A stretch of DNA of 64,000 nt from Gammaproteobacteria bacterium. Lineage in GTDB: Bacteria > Pseudomonadota > Gammaproteobacteria > GCA-001735895. The stretch spans positions 12,570-76,569 of the forward strand of contig JASJCI010000033.1 in assembly GCA_030066085.1 (NCBI GenBank), read 5' to 3'. Below are positions 37,144-42,388 of the stretch, one piece after another (position 1 is the first letter of the stretch; the number at the start of each line of letters is the position of its first letter). Under the pieces are notes generated by a model. The model worked only from the letters and a program-made list of their open reading frames with translations, searched no databases and was not told where the DNA came from. The position numbers and the translations under genes were made by a program.

Positions 37144-38049
37144 GTGGAGCCTGTCCTGAAGACACTCGCTCGACCCGTGCTGCTGAACTGGACGCTGTTG
37201 ATGGTGCTGGTTGCACTGTGGGGGACGTCGTTCATGTTCACCGCGATCTCGGTTGCCACCGTCGACCCGGTATCGGTCGTGTTCTACCGGCTCGCGCTCG
37301 GCGCGGTGGTGCTGTCGCTGGTCATCTACGCCCGCGGCGAAACGCTGCCGCTGAACTGGCGCTCATGGAGCGGCTTCCTGGTCATGGCGATTGCCGGCAA
37401 CGCACTGCCCTTCTTCCTGATCTCCTGGGGACAGCAAAGCGTGGATTCGGGGGTTGCCGGCATGATCATGGCGATCATGCCGCTGTTGACGATGGTATTC
37501 GCGCATTACCTCGTCCCCGGGGAGACCCTGAATCGTTACAAGTTCATCGGTTTCCTGCTCGGTATCACCGGCGTGACGCTGCTGCTGGGGCCGGTGTTCG
37601 AGGGCGGCGGACGGGAGTTCTGGAGCGGTTGCGCAATTTTTACCGCGGCCACCTGTTACGCGGTCAACGCGATCCTGATCAAGCGCCTGCCGCGCCACAG
37701 CCCGATGGTTGGCGCCGGTGGCGTGCTGCTGATGGCGACACTGGTGCTGTTTCCGTTCTGGCTCGCCTTCCGCTCCGAGCAGGCCGCGATCAGCCAGGCG
37801 TCGATGTTCTCCGTGATCTGGCTCGGTATCGGTCCAACCGGTATCGCCACGATCGTGCTGTTTGCCGTAATCGATCGCGCCGGACCGACTTTCCTGTCGA
37901 CGATCAACTACCTGATTCCGGTGGTCGCTTTTTTCTGTGGCGCCTGGCTGCTGAACGAAAGCGTTGGCTGGCTGCACTACCTGGCGCTGGTGACGATCCT
38001 GGTCGGCATCGCCGTCACCCGTCGCAGGGCGATTCCTCAGCGGGCATGA
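37144..38049 (+). CDS. DMT (EamA) family transporter
   Basis: LWGTSFMF, GNALPFFLISWGQ and GPTFLSTINYLIPVVA motifs. Confidence 0.88.
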   Translation: MEPVLKTLARPVLLNWTLLMVLVALWGTSFMFTAISVATVDPVSVVFYRLALGAVVLSLVIYARGETLPLNWRSWSGFLVMAIAGNALPFFLISWGQQSVDSGVAGMIMAIMPLLTMVFAHYLVPGETLNRYKFIGFLLGITGVTLLLGPVFEGGGREFWSGCAIFTAATCYAVNAILIKRLPRHSPMVGAGGVLLMATLVLFPFWLAFRSEQAAISQASMFSVIWLGIGPTGIATIVLFAVIDRAGPTFLSTINYLIPVVAFFCGAWLLNESVGWLHYLALVTILVGIAVTRRRAIPQRA

Positions 38050-38140
38050 CACAAGCGCTACCCGCGCAATACCGCGTCCATGGATTTGCTCCGCTCACCT
38101 TGCGCAGCACCGAAATCGGGCAAACGGGCTCGCTTGCAGG

Positions 38141-38222
38141 CGGACATTACTCTATCATGTGCTAGACAAAATTTAGGCAACCAGCGATCCAGGCGCGCTG
38201 ATTGCGCGTTTGATAGTAGACA
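38141..38222 (+). promoter_or_regulatory. Putative autoregulatory operator of the MerR gene (11-bp-phased TnnACA-like repeats)
   Basis: CGGACA 38141, TAGACA 38163 and TAGGCA 38174 (multiples of 11 bp), plus TAGACA 38217. Confidence 0.5.
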
Positions 38223-38243
38223 TTTTTTAAGCTGACGATCAAC

Positions 38244-39209
38244 ATGGCCGCAAATTCCCCGAGTCCCGACCGGGCCGAGGCGCGTTACCGCATCGGTGCC
38301 GTCTGCCGCCTGACCGGAATCAGCCAGCACGTGCTGCGCGTGTGGGAAAAACGCTATGGCGTGGTAGAGCCAATGCGTGGGCCCAACCAGCGGCGGCTGT
38401 ACAGCGAAGCCGACCTCCGACGACTGTCCCTGCTCAAGGCGCTGGTCGACAGCGGCCACGCCATCGGCAGCATCGCCACGCTCGATGACCCGGCTCTCGA
38501 AACCCGCCTGCAGCATTCCCGGGGCCCGCTCAAGACCCGGCAGCCGGTCGAGTTACCGCGCCTGCTGCTGGTCGGGCATTCGCTGGAGCTGCTTGCATCG
38601 GCCTGCGCTGACAGCAGCAGCTATGAGCTGGTCGCCAAACACCATGATCTTGCCGCGGTTGCGCCCGGTACCCGTGCCGATGTCGCGGTGCTGGAGCGCG
38701 CCAACCTTTACCCGGAAACGGCCGCGGAAGCCAACCGTATCGTCACCGATCTGAACCTGCGCCTGCTGGTGCTGGTTTACGACTTTGCGTCACGGGCTAC
38801 CCTCGAACGAATGCGCGGCGAGCGGATCGTTACCGTGCGGGCACCGCTGGATGCAAACTCGCTCGACGCGGTGGTCGCCACCCGTTTCGCGGGCACGCAA
38901 TATCCATCCGACAGCGGCCAGGATTCGCTACCGCTGCCGCCAGCCCGCCAGTTCAGCGATCGGCAACTGGCCCACCTCGCGGCCCAGTCGAGCGAGATCG
39001 CTTGCGAATGCCCCCAGCACCTGGCCCGGATCGTCGGCCATCTCGCCCATTTCGAGGCCTACAGCGCCGATTGCGAATCGCGCTCTCCCGCCGATGCCGC
39101 GCTGCATCGGGAACTGTTCGAAATTACCTCGCGTGCGCGGGCCAGGATGGAACAGGCACTGCAACGGGTAATCGAGGCGGAAGGCCTGTCCGCCGACCCG
39201 GACGACTGA
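38244..39209 (+). CDS. MerR-family regulator, LitR/CarH-like HTH with C-terminal CECPxH domain
   Basis: YRIGAVCRLTGI..LRVWEKRY..P.R...RRLYS..D HTH; C-terminal ACECPQHL..FEAYS..C...DAALH; no B12-binding ExH/WxxG motif seen. Confidence 0.85.
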   Translation: MAANSPSPDRAEARYRIGAVCRLTGISQHVLRVWEKRYGVVEPMRGPNQRRLYSEADLRRLSLLKALVDSGHAIGSIATLDDPALETRLQHSRGPLKTRQPVELPRLLLVGHSLELLASACADSSSYELVAKHHDLAAVAPGTRADVAVLERANLYPETAAEANRIVTDLNLRLLVLVYDFASRATLERMRGERIVTVRAPLDANSLDAVVATRFAGTQYPSDSGQDSLPLPPARQFSDRQLAHLAAQSSEIACECPQHLARIVGHLAHFEAYSADCESRSPADAALHRELFEITSRARARMEQALQRVIEAEGLSADPDD

Positions 39210-39233
39210 TCCCGCCCGATTTCTCCCGCGTAT

Positions 39234-39258
39234 AAAAAAAGCCCCGGCAAGCCGGGGC
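39234..39258 (-). terminator. Rho-independent terminator facing the minus strand
   Basis: GCCCCGGC-TT-GCCGGGGC followed by T7 on the minus strand; no minus-strand protein gene upstream of it. Confidence 0.85.
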
Positions 39259-39349
39259 AACTGTATCTGTATCAGGCTTTGGGCGGAGAGCAGCCGCCCG
39301 AGAGAGTGCGCCGTCCCTGGCGCGGTAACGAGAGAACTCGCATGATCAA

Positions 39350-39366
39350 TGTCTATATATTGTTCA
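39350..39366 (-). promoter_or_regulatory. Operator box A (TGAACAATATATAGACA)
   Basis: Two TnnACA cores 11 bp apart; 15/17 identical to box B, in inverted orientation. Confidence 0.6.
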
Positions 39367-39369
39367 TGC

Positions 39370-39407
39370 TTGACGTAGACAATAAGTGATTCTATTATCT
39401 TCGTCAA
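39370..39407. promoter_or_regulatory. Overlapping divergent sigma70 promoters (quasi-palindrome)
   Basis: Plus: TTGACG(39370-75)-N17-TATTAT(39393-98). Minus: TTGACG(39407-02)-N17-TATTGT(39384-79). Arms 13/15 identical. Confidence 0.7.
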
Positions 39408-39427
39408 ATATATTTTTACGTTTATTG

Positions 39428-39444
39428 TGAACTTTATATAGACA
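39428..39444 (+). promoter_or_regulatory. Operator box B (TGAACTTTATATAGACA)
   Basis: Inverted near-copy of box A, downstream of the plus-strand promoter. Confidence 0.6.
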
Positions 39445-39833
39445 AGCAGCGTAAAAATTGTACCTTGCGGCGAGTGCCGGTCATCAAACAGGACCGATTC
39501 GCATGACGCAAGACGATTAATGGTGCATCGGCCGCTGCTATGGTTTCTAGCCCTCTGGTTGCGCTTGTCAGTAGGCTCGCTACCGTGGCCGAAGCACCGC
39601 CTAAACCCAGGGGCCCGGCGCAGGCAAGAGTTGCCTCGCGCCGGCAACCGCCCGATCTTCGGATCGCGAGAGCCTCGCGGCCAACCGGAATACGTCTCCG
39701 CCGGTCACCCGCTTCCCGCTCCTCCAGCCGGTAACGCTGCGGCTGGTATCACAGGGGCCGGCGGTAGACGTTCACCCTTCTTCGTGACACCCGCGCACCC
39801 GCTGCCGCAAAAACGGCACGGGCCTCGCGCGCG

Positions 39834-39862
39834 TTGACAGCGCCACCGCCGCGGCGTATTTT
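39834..39862 (+). promoter_or_regulatory. Sigma70 promoter of the antiporter gene
   Basis: TTGACA-N17-TATTTT ending 27 nt before ATG 39890; GGAGA RBS. Confidence 0.55.
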
Positions 39863-39889
39863 CGTCAGGGTCGTGCACGCGGAGACGGC

Positions 39890-42388
39890 ATGCCGGTTTC
39901 CGAAGTCATTTTTGTGCTGGTGGTATTGCTGGGCCTTGCCATGCTGGTCACCGGACTGTGCCGCAAGCTTCCCATCCCCTTCACCGTCGTCCTGGTCGTC
40001 ATCGGCGTGCTGCTGGCCGATCTCGCCGAGCACTGGCCGCTGCTGCAGCCGCTGCAGGATTTCGAACTGCGTCCCGAGGTCATGCTGTTCATCTTCCTGC
40101 CGGCGCTGATCTTCGAGTCCGGCTTCGCGCTCGACGCGCGCCAGCTGACCCGCGACCTGCCGGCAGTGCTGATCCTCGCAATTCCCGCCATGCTGATGTC
40201 GACCTTCATCGTTGGCCTCGGTGTCTGGCTCATGCTGGATACCCGCCTGATCGTGGCGCTGGTGTTTGGTGCGTTGATCTCCGCTACCGATCCGGTAGCC
40301 GTCGTGGCGCTGTTCAAGGAACTGGGGGCGCCGAATCGGCTCAACGTACTGGTCGAAGGCGAATCCCTGCTCAACGACGCCACCGCGATCGTCGCCTTCT
40401 CGATCCTGCTGGCAATCGCGATCGAAGGCAGCGGCATTGGCCCGGGAGATATCGACAGCGTCATCCTCGAATTCCTGCGGGTATTCATCGGCGGTGTCCT
40501 GTTCGGTACGCTGCTCGGTTTTGCCGTGTGCGAAATCCTGCATCGCATCCGCGCCAGCCTGAGCGTGATCCTGACCACGTCGATCCTGACCGCGTACGCC
40601 GCCTTCGTCGGCGGCGAACACCTGCTGCACGTGTCCGGCGTCATGGCGGTTGTCGCCGCTGCCGTCGCGCTGCGCCTGTTCGGCATGTCGCGCATTCGCC
40701 AGGATGCCACGCATTCGATCAGCGAGACCTGGGAAGTGATCGCGCTGTCCTGCAACTCGCTGCTGTTCCTGATGGTGGGGCTGTCGGTGCACACCGATAA
40801 CCTGCTGCAAAGACTCGGACCGGTGGCAATCGTAATAGCACTGGTGCTGACCGCTCGCGCGCTGTCGATTTACACGCTGGTGCCGTTGACCACGCGCTGG
40901 TTCAAGCTGCCGCGGGTAACGCTCGGCGAGCGGCATATCATGTGGTGGGGCGGTCTCAAGGGCGGACTTGCGATTGCCGTGGTGCTATCGATTCCGGCGG
41001 ATCTGCCCGAACGCCAGTTCCTGTTCGACCTGACCATCGGCGTGGTGCTGTTTACGCTGCTGGTCAGCGCGCCGACGATCCGCCCGTTGATGCAGCGTCT
41101 CGGCATGAACGAGTTTTCCCGCGGCGAGGAACTCGAACTGCGCACCGCGCTGATCACTGCTCGCCACAAACTCGAGGCCAACCTGGAGCGCCTGCAAAGC
41201 AGCAAGCTGGCGCCGAAGATCGACGAGCATCGATTTCTGCAGGATATCGAAATCGCGTTCGGCTCGACCTGGTACGACGAAGATACCAGCAGCCGCGAAG
41301 ACGACGAGATAGTCGCCATGCTGCGCGCGCACCACGTCGAGCGCAGTGCGCTGAAGCACCTCTACGAAACCGGTTACATCAGCCAGTACGTTTACCTGGA
41401 CATGCTCAATCGTCTTTACGCTACCCGCGAACAGCTGCGCCAGGCCGAAGAGCCGATCGACAGCCACCGGGAAAGCCGGCAGCAGTCGTTTTTCCAGCGC
41501 ATGGAAAAGCGGCTGCTGCGCTGGATGCGCGAAAGACGCTGGACCTCGACGCTGCTGGCGCGCTTCCAGGGCATGCGCGTGGTGCAGCAGGTACAGCGCA
41601 ACCTGGCGCACGTATTGATGTGCGACGCGGTAATCCTGAACCTCGGCGAGCAAAGCGATCTCGACGACGATGCCCGCGCGCACGCGATCGCGATTTACAA
41701 GGAACGTCGTAAACACTACCGCAAGAACCTGAAAATGGCGCGTGCGCGCTTCCCGGTATTCTACCGTCACTACCTCGAACTGCTGGCGAAACGCTCGACC
41801 ATATACAGCGGCTGGAACCACGTGAAATCGGAATTCGAGCACGGCGATCTCGGCGCCAAGGGTTTTGTCGCGACCCAACGCATGGTTGATGTGAAGGTCG
41901 AGCGCCTGCGCCAGTCCGAGCCGCGCATGGCGCGCGAGGAAAACAGCGTCGCCGACATGATCGAGGACCTGGAGCTGTTCAGCGACCTGTCGGACGATGA
42001 TCGCGCCTGGCTGGAAAAAAGCGCGACATCAATCACCTTCCTGCCGGGTGATACGATCATGGGCGCCTACCAGTCCGGCGATACCTTCTACGTCCTGATC
42101 GTCGGTGATGCCGAGGTCTGGCGCACTGACGCGCTGAGCTATCCGCACCACGTCGCCGACCTCACCGACGGGGACATCATCGGCGAATCCGCGCTCCTGG
42201 CCGAGCTCGAGCGTGGGCGCCACATCCGTTCGGCGACGATCAAGGCGGTCAGCGCCTGCATCCTGTTGCGTATTTCGATGCGTTCGATGTTGCGACTGCT
42301 GGAAAAGTACCCCGGCATACGCGACCGCATGCAGCAGATCCACGACGACCGCGGTGCCGACCAGGCACCGAAGATTACCGACGATTGA
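39890..42388 (+). CDS. CPA1 Na+/H+ antiporter with C-terminal cyclic-nucleotide-binding domain
   Basis: FLPALIFESG, ISATDPVAV, EGESLLNDATAIV, WGGLKGGL; C-terminal CNBD with IGESALL...RSATIKA. Confidence 0.9.
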   Translation: MPVSEVIFVLVVLLGLAMLVTGLCRKLPIPFTVVLVVIGVLLADLAEHWPLLQPLQDFELRPEVMLFIFLPALIFESGFALDARQLTRDLPAVLILAIPAMLMSTFIVGLGVWLMLDTRLIVALVFGALISATDPVAVVALFKELGAPNRLNVLVEGESLLNDATAIVAFSILLAIAIEGSGIGPGDIDSVILEFLRVFIGGVLFGTLLGFAVCEILHRIRASLSVILTTSILTAYAAFVGGEHLLHVSGVMAVVAAAVALRLFGMSRIRQDATHSISETWEVIALSCNSLLFLMVGLSVHTDNLLQRLGPVAIVIALVLTARALSIYTLVPLTTRWFKLPRVTLGERHIMWWGGLKGGLAIAVVLSIPADLPERQFLFDLTIGVVLFTLLVSAPTIRPLMQRLGMNEFSRGEELELRTALITARHKLEANLERLQSSKLAPKIDEHRFLQDIEIAFGSTWYDEDTSSREDDEIVAMLRAHHVERSALKHLYETGYISQYVYLDMLNRLYATREQLRQAEEPIDSHRESRQQSFFQRMEKRLLRWMRERRWTSTLLARFQGMRVVQQVQRNLAHVLMCDAVILNLGEQSDLDDDARAHAIAIYKERRKHYRKNLKMARARFPVFYRHYLELLAKRSTIYSGWNHVKSEFEHGDLGAKGFVATQRMVDVKVERLRQSEPRMAREENSVADMIEDLELFSDLSDDDRAWLEKSATSITFLPGDTIMGAYQSGDTFYVLIVGDAEVWRTDALSYPHHVADLTDGDIIGESALLAELERGRHIRSATIKAVSACILLRISMRSMLRLLEKYPGIRDRMQQIHDDRGADQAPKITDD

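Follow-up and report, generated by a model that had tools for sequence, protein, structure and literature searches.

In enterobacteria, the small regulatory RNA (sRNA) gene micF lies divergent from the structural gene ompC, shares a regulatory spacer with it, tracks in its level the regulators of that neighbour and can act in trans on the ribosome-binding sites of other mRNAs to silence them, while OxyS, GcvB and SgrS are each encoded beside their own regulator (OxyR, GcvA and SgrR, respectively), in divergent pairs whose regulators are of the LysR or SgrR type. Here we describe a locus in 64,000 nucleotides (nt) of DNA (the window) from contig JASJCI010000033.1 (positions 12,570 to 76,569, forward strand) of the gammaproteobacterial assembly GCA_030066085.1. 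The element in question is read on the minus strand, corresponds to an RNA of 139 nt (39234-39372), and adjoins the gene of a MerR-type regulator and, in relatives, that of a high-potential iron-sulfur protein (HiPIP). It is very probably a small regulatory RNA gene common to a dozen uncultured marine sulfur-bacteria relatives, and the family that it represents is very probably real, previously undescribed and genus-restricted. Like micF-ompC, the locus has an sRNA divergent from a structural gene with one shared regulatory spacer, but the two RNAs are related in neither sequence nor structure, the neighbour encodes HiPIP and not a porin, and the regulator is encoded next door. The tight sRNA-regulator linkage and the operator-like sites in the sRNA promoter region recall OxyS/OxyR, GcvB/GcvA and SgrS/SgrR, whereas the pair described here is convergent and its regulator possesses a helix-turn-helix (HTH) of CarH/MerR type.

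No Rfam family reached its gathering score anywhere in the 64-kb window, which fits the novelty suspected in the preliminary description of this DNA, and a literature search on HiPIP, small RNA and MerR together yielded nothing relevant among the papers listed. When the 196-nt region was searched against the DNA of 60 relatives, only short terminator-like matches were returned, and in its own genome the element is single-copy, with no paralogue found. Since the direct DNA search found no relatives, the neighbouring regulator protein was used as the query and synteny was inspected. Homologues of the regulator (49-55% identity) were present in 15 of 61 genus genomes, the window's own included, and in a species-level collection full-length relatives were nearly confined to the window's group, one record of which bears the title Olavius algarvensis Gamma 3 endosymbiont; the genes that follow two remoter homologues are unrelated. 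In the relatives, the same element was found downstream of the regulator homologue, on the opposite strand.

A covariance model (R1) was built from 12 sequences found by synteny and then run on the 61 genus genomes, in which it matched exactly those 12, one copy each, with scores of 66-117 bits and always adjoining the regulator homologue. A thirteenth copy (L017) is cut by a contig end, and two regulator-bearing genomes (L015 and L025) lack the element. Run against 150 genomes from other families of the class, R1 gave no matches. The preliminary description had proposed a discrete, strand-specific, non-coding gene convergent with the MerR gene, and the recovery of the element at the same place in 12 of the 61 genomes bears this out.

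The anatomy of the element was computed directly, as were its conservation, the operator-like motifs and the link with regulator and HiPIP. This anatomy agrees with that first account (Table 1): all the hairpins, C/U-rich stretches and the minus-strand terminator with U7 listed there are present, with the correction that the terminator stem, given as 8 bp, counts 7 G-C pairs in the terminator scan, closed by a 4-nt loop and followed by a TTTTTTT tail. Folding of the 139-nt RNA gave -50.7 kcal/mol, against -40.0 ± 3.8 kcal/mol for shuffled sequences (z = -2.8), 1 of 200 shuffles being equally stable. Both flanking genes, encoding the MerR-HTH protein (38244-39209) and a Na+/H+ exchanger with a cyclic nucleotide monophosphate (cNMP) domain (39890-42388), lie on the plus strand. 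Upstream of the element the minus strand holds no long open reading frame (ORF), only ones that overlap the plus-strand exchanger gene, in agreement with the earlier statement that no minus-strand protein gene lies there. Element and regulator gene are convergent (tail to tail), with 25 nt from the regulator stop codon to the sRNA U-tract. The hairpin that they share is followed by no T-tract on its plus-strand side, and it is the T-tract after the last stem that sets the predicted strand of the element.

Comparison of the 12 sequences revealed that the first C/U-rich stretch and the GGA-loop hairpin are the most conserved parts. The stretch reads CCUCUCGUUA in 7 of the 12, and its core CUCUCGUUA is identical in 9; the GCC/GGC hairpin begins 3-5 nt past it, carries GGA in its loop in 11 and keeps its three inner pairs in 11, 11 and 12 of the sequences. 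Hairpin 1 is succeeded in the relatives by a C/U-rich linker (CCCUUUU(U)UACC at the equivalent place), a second hairpin and a terminator, the stem of which is kept and the T-rich tail of which is weakest in L024. Hairpin 2 stands at the same place in each relative with a differing sequence; in the high-GC members (the window, L023, L026 and L027) the sequence has been replaced and still forms a hairpin at that place. Two features, the CGAG/CUCG mini-hairpin and the 5′ hairpin, are peculiar to the window's genome, and relatives do not conserve the sequence of the 5′ hairpin. Three UCUC-rich anti-Shine-Dalgarno stretches had been pointed out beforehand, and all three are present in the window, but only the first is strongly conserved among the relatives.

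In the model-guided alignment, 84.1% of the cells hold standard pairs, compared with 77.2 ± 1.5% in column shuffles (0 of 500 reached the observed value), and sliding the partners by 1-3 columns lowered pairing to 35.6-51.6%. The covariation named in the preliminary description as a check was found as compensatory changes in 7 of 17 pairs, which have changed on both sides, and as a covariation score of 0.207 (0.125 ± 0.021 in the comparison set), a modest support given 12 related sequences and an alignment fitted to the model. A related-strain contig that comes from a separate sediment study (X3, record 11) and covers 39228-39603 differs by 22 substitutions and 4 gaps, none of them in the seed, hairpin 1 or the terminator. 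Two substitutions and a 2-nt deletion fall within the hairpin-2 loop and the linker, and the changes in the linker indicate that the second C/U-rich stretch is less constrained. A further three substitutions lie in the 5′ hairpin, one in the promoter spacer and 16 in 39438-39519, while both sRNA promoter hexamers (39379-39407) are unaltered in related-strain contigs.

Table 1. Features of the predicted sRNA gene and its surroundings, in window coordinates.
Feature	Position	Strand	Basis or remark
MerR-type regulator, 321 aa	38244-39209	plus	CarH-like HTH, alpha/beta middle domain, helical C-terminus
Two TAGACA boxes 54 bp apart, upstream of regulator gene	38163-38222	plus	sequence
Rho-independent terminator, stem GCCCCGG/CCGGGGC (39258-39241), then U7 (39240-39234)	39234-39258	minus	terminator scan
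Hairpin 2, GGGCGG-CUGCUCU-CCGCCC	39281-39299	minus	sequence, fold
Second C/U-rich linker ACUCUCUC	39300-39307	minus	CCCUUUU(U)UACC at equivalent place in relatives
Hairpin 1, GCGCC-AGGGAC-GGCGC	39308-39323	minus	GCC/GGC stem and GGA loop, conserved
C/U-rich putative seed GUUCUCUCGUUAC, core CUCUCGUUA	39325-39337	minus	sequence, conservation
Mini-hairpin CGAG-UUCU-CUCG	39339-39328	minus	sequence
5′ hairpin GCAUGA...UCAUGC	39369-39340	minus	genome-specific; encloses box TGAACAATATATAGACA and operator-like repeats
Tandem 11-bp repeats TGAACAATATA and TAGACATTGAT (TnnACA boxes)	39345-39366	minus	sRNA strand; candidate regulator site
Promoter-like TTGACG-17-TATTGT	39379-39407	minus	promoter scan; predicted sRNA start near 39372
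Promoter-like TTGACG-17-TATTAT	39370-39398	plus	promoter scan; mirror image of sRNA-side site
Remnant HiPIP-type promoter, tandem TGAACTTTATA and TAGACAAGCAG (39428-39449), TAAAAA 19 nt after GTGAAC	39428-39457	plus	sequence
Related-strain change, hairpin-2 loop substitution	39293		
Related-strain change, linker 2-nt deletion	39300		
Related-strain change, linker U to C	39305		

Ten of the 12 loci contain an intact HiPIP gene, with a twin-arginine translocation (Tat) signal and the Cys motif; the sRNA points away from it, and its seed lies 150-165 nt from the HiPIP ATG. Behind HiPIP, the relatives carry the gene of a 59-61-aa membrane protein and then a long hairpin that is conserved. In L024 (G005) a frameshift interrupts the HiPIP gene, and in the adjoining sRNA copy the seed is mutated, hairpin 1 is broken and the T-tract is missing; the two parts of the module may be decaying together, or the assembly may be at fault. 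In the window itself the HiPIP and small-protein genes are gone, and the promoter remnant (39428-39457) and the long hairpin (39684-39773) remain. The interval 39458-39680, which corresponds in position to the HiPIP and small-membrane-protein genes of the relatives, is non-coding-looking and strain-hypervariable here, and is probably a decaying remnant.

With a span of about 90 nt (ACGTCTCCGCCGGT...ACCGGCGGTAGACGT), the hairpin that remains at 39684-39773 encloses an inner hairpin and reaches -46 kcal/mol over a 110-nt stretch. It is single-copy in the genome, conserved after the HiPIP/small-protein operon in relatives and kept in the window despite the loss of that operon; several metagenome contigs match exactly this stretch and diverge on both sides of it. 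The genome's only clear HiPIP homologue is found at C45:3866-4156 (L082) and shares 55% identity with the sRNA-linked HiPIP of a relative. In front of it stands a promoter recognisably related to the 39428-39457 remnant (ATGATC-19-TATTTT with TTTATAT), with degenerate TnnACA boxes. A tie between the module and photosynthesis was rejected, since PF00124 reaction-centre genes occur in 1 of the 61 genus genomes, the window's own. Reaction-centre L/M genes (C70:10935-12603; L091 and L092) and a bchB-like gene (C32:4799-6355; L083) were seen in that genome only; it belongs to the single phototroph of the genus or else contains mis-binned contigs.

According to PMC9304148, CarH binds tandem 11-bp direct repeats of the form nnnnTnnACAn, the -35 element being part of one repeat. 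Tandem 11-bp pairs of TnnAC(A/T) and TnnACA face the HiPIP side in 11 of 13 loci, the window included, and in the 10 relatives concerned they are positioned 47-67 nt ahead of the ATG; the probability of such a tandem pair in shuffled spacers is 0.006-0.028 per locus. Of 12 loci, 11 have TnnACA on the sRNA strand (variants TAGACA, TTGACA, TCGACA, TTAACA and TAAACA), and upstream of the regulator gene a TnnACA pair 52-54 bp apart is found in 8 of 15. TAGACA is found 273 times genome-wide, counting both strands (0.062 per kb), and five of these copies lie within 38151-39460, which is the genome's only 1.3-kb stretch with four or more. A strain variant at 39365 (C>T) converts TGAACA to TAAACA with the TnnACA motif retained, and four strain changes around 39439-39444 all fall outside TAGACA. 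To judge by these motifs, the promoter regions of regulator, sRNA and HiPIP appear to carry the CarH operator design, and the regulator probably controls the sRNA.

The promoter scan returned 4 promoter-like sites in 38000-40500, compared with 0.5 ± 0.6 in shuffles. Most HiPIP-side promoters display, by eye, a 19-nt spacer between TGAAC/TGATC -35-like and TAWWWW -10-like elements, and on the sRNA side the scan proposed 19-nt spacers in five low-GC species. CarH represses, whereas classical MerR proteins activate at long-spacer promoters, and the action of the regulator at the module's promoters could be repression or activation. In the window, the repeats are located just downstream of the predicted start, and binding there would be expected to repress. 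The two mirror-image promoter-like sites of 39370-39407 form an imperfect inverted repeat (TTGACGTAGACAATAA versus TTGACGAAGATAATAG), in which the -10 of each promoter is supplied by the complement of the opposing arm. A TTGACA and TAGACA arrangement like this pair also occurs in L028 and L021.

The best PDB sequence matches of the regulator HTH are to CarH of Thermus (3whp and 5c8d, E = 4-5e-10). CarH is also the top NCBIfam match, over residues 14-72 only and with 43.6 bits against a cut-off of 400, and the MerR HTH is the only Pfam domain, no Pfam match to a B12-binding domain having been found in the protein. The AlphaFold model (pLDDT 73) comprises the HTH, an alpha/beta domain (106-215) and a helical C-terminus. 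Foldseek ranked full-length CarH first, with a whole-chain TM-score of only 0.21-0.24; a fold search independent of Foldseek matched the HTH alone convincingly, and the Atlas returned only unnamed 'MerR family' clusters (0.89-0.90). The C-terminal helical hairpin scored Z ~7-8 to ferritin-like and many unrelated helical chains, values that are not meaningful for helices, and the helical C-terminus had no Pfam family and no convincing structural match. This region (residues 250-320) contains invariant C254, E255, C256, H259, E271, C277, E278 and H288 and is a candidate metal or redox sensor. The regulator thus resembles CarH/LitR in its HTH and in the 11-bp-spaced TnnACA boxes overlapping -35-like elements, and differs in that low whole-chain similarity, in the domain order of the model and in having no B12-binding domain. 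We know of no sRNA in CarH regulons.

As a whole, the explanation that we favour, at somewhat better than an even chance, is that the element encodes a regulator-controlled sRNA of a regulator-sRNA-HiPIP module and acts in trans; we infer its transcription, its exact 5′ end, its control by the regulator and the sign of that control, its base-pairing and its targets. A non-coding RNA of ~115-135 nt would be transcribed from the minus strand, from the AT-rich spacer to the terminator past the regulator 3′ end, with a conserved core of the C/U-rich CUCUCGUUA, the GGA-loop hairpin, the second hairpin and the terminator. The regulator would probably bind TnnACA boxes, often in 11-bp tandem, at its own, the sRNA and the HiPIP promoters, and would jointly govern how much of the sRNA and of the HiPIP electron carrier is made. 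The C/U-rich stretch of the sRNA would pair in trans with purine-rich ribosome-binding regions of GAGAG/GAGG type, probably with Hfq, and lower translation. The genome encodes hfq (100 bits), the presence of which, together with the terminator and its U-tail, fits an Hfq-type base-pairing sRNA, and base-pairing in trans is the best-supported guess as to how the RNA would act.

In the window's own genome the 8-mer complementary to the seed was counted 44 times, and 15 of these copies lie near possible starts, among others those of acnB, a GcvT-like gene, a rhodanese gene, fliA and bchB. Among the matches of the target search in relatives, some are iron-sulfur proteins. The ribosome-binding site of acnB (aconitase B), AACGAGAGA, located 8 nt before the ATG (C41:80057-80075; L081), is complementary to the seed over 9-10 nt.

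Several observations weigh against this explanation. A search for sequencing runs over 38900-39900 listed none of RNA, and the sRNA transcript, its ends and its strand are read from sequence; the counts of G-U and A-C (8 versus 6) leave the strand undecided, and the covariation, as noted above, is modest. The sRNA promoter (39407-39379) is a consensus match only, and in the window a mere 15 nt separate the conserved TAGACA box from the seed, which means that the ancestral promoter layout has changed. The regulator is without the B12-binding domain of CarH, and its DNA specificity is presumed from the similarity of the HTH. As for targets, AACGAGAGG-N2-12-ATG was found at 16 sites in 5 sRNA-bearing relatives against 10 in the reversed control, no clear excess, and the 16 include the sRNA locus. 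Matches to pilQ (4 of 5 genomes) and gltD (2 of 5) recurred, but neither site is complementary in the window's own genome, and the complementarity of acnB is not kept in the seven relatives examined, which have GAGAA-type sites with shorter pairing. Duplexes of each sRNA with its cognate HiPIP translation start did not outdo shuffles (z between -0.87 and +1.36). A genome-wide duplex-energy scan of 10066 crude start sites gave no excess over 6 shuffled seeds, a result that is uninformative given DNA letters and unvalidated starts. The trans-acting, base-pairing sRNA of the preliminary description therefore retains its conserved seed and its terminator, but in the searches made no complementary ribosome-binding site, and no target, conserved across genomes was found.

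A bolder proposal, which we rate as rather unlikely, is that the sRNA and HiPIP are two outputs of an undescribed B12-independent sensor of CarH type, whose Cys/His/Glu cluster binds a metal or iron-sulfur centre, and that the sRNA silences alternative enzymes. In such a sensor C254, C256, H259 and C277 plus several Glu would sense redox state, oxygen or iron; on switching, HiPIP would be made and the sRNA would silence alternative respiratory or iron-sulfur enzymes via GAGAG-type ribosome-binding sites. If true, this would amount to a MicF-like reciprocal electron-carrier switch in uncultured sulfur-oxidising symbiont and sediment bacteria.

The AGGGAC loop of hairpin 1 had been likened beforehand to a CsrA/RsmA site, and an RNA whose GGA-loop hairpin, with the purine-poor stretch close by, binds CsrA/RsmA could weakly titrate CsrA or be controlled by it, base-pairing then not being its main mode of action. 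The GGA loop kept in 11 of the 12 sequences agrees with such binding, csrA is present in the genome, and several loops read CAUGGAUG or CAGGGAC, near the CsrA consensus. Known CsrA sponges carry many GGA hairpins, however, and high-affinity binding needs two sites, whereas the family has a single conserved GGA hairpin, additional GGAs being sporadic (L020; 5′ leaders of L026 and L027), and its most conserved element is a C/U-rich stretch, which CsrA would not be expected to bind. The likeness to CsrB/RsmY/RsmZ is thus limited to the GGA in a hairpin loop, with no Rfam match; the loop itself stands as described, one such hairpin is insufficient for a CsrA sponge, and we consider a protein-binding function of this kind distinctly unlikely.

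GadY acts on the gadX 3′ untranslated region in cis-antisense fashion, and the element might likewise pair with read-through transcripts of the regulator gene, to which its complementarity would be complete, and alter the stability of the regulator mRNA. The convergent arrangement with its short interval, the missing plus-strand T-tract and the absolute linkage to the regulator would suit this mechanism, for which read-through of the regulator gene has to be assumed. A cis-antisense RNA alone, however, would have no need of a conserved single-stranded seed, compensated hairpins or a terminator of its own, and as the sole function it is decidedly improbable; a cis-antisense effect and action in trans could coexist.

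It is also conceivable, though highly unlikely in our estimate, that there is no discrete RNA and that the conserved stretch combines the regulator terminator with promoter/operator DNA for the HiPIP side. The AT-rich part clearly holds protein-binding motifs, and the transcript is a prediction, but the conserved core is GC-rich and lies 30-100 nt from the AT-rich operators, its stems are kept via compensatory changes, and the T-tract of the terminator faces the minus strand.

A Fur-repressed, iron-sparing sRNA of the PrrF/RyhB kind would account for the top sub-threshold Rfam match in permissive mode, PrrF (RF00444; 20.7 bits, E = 0.62), which the element resembles in size, in its strong -35-like start, in having an AT-rich operator region and in ending at a rho-independent terminator, and it would accord with the seed-complementary acnB site and with the iron-sulfur proteins, HiPIP included, encountered above. 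The score is far below the gathering score of 90, however, and the alignment spans only the promoter-like start (TTGAC plus AT-rich DNA) and the terminator, the body being skipped. The best match to the 19-bp Fur-box consensus in 39331-39470 is 11/19, ordinary for AT-rich DNA; 14/19 is reached in the spacer of only 1 of 15 relatives, and 2788 genome sites score 12 or more. With a PrrF body that cannot be aligned, no convincing Fur box and an acnB complementarity that 7 relatives do not keep, this kinship was rejected as very improbable. The 23-codon ORF inside the element, named earlier as a possible functional product, is AUG-initiated (39344-39342, minus strand), but no Shine-Dalgarno sequence precedes it, and since frames, start codons and lengths vary among species and indels are not multiples of three, it is not a conserved gene, and a small-protein function was rejected as extremely improbable.

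Should the RNA not be expressed, an unusually dense and specific operator cluster would remain. The locus points to a CarH-like regulator in which the B12 light-sensing module has been swapped for a Cys/His-rich sensor and the 11-bp TnnACA grammar has apparently been kept. To our knowledge, almost nothing is known of post-transcriptional control in this bacterial group, and the element would add to it an undescribed sRNA family with a regulator-sRNA-electron carrier logic, in uncultured marine gammaproteobacteria.

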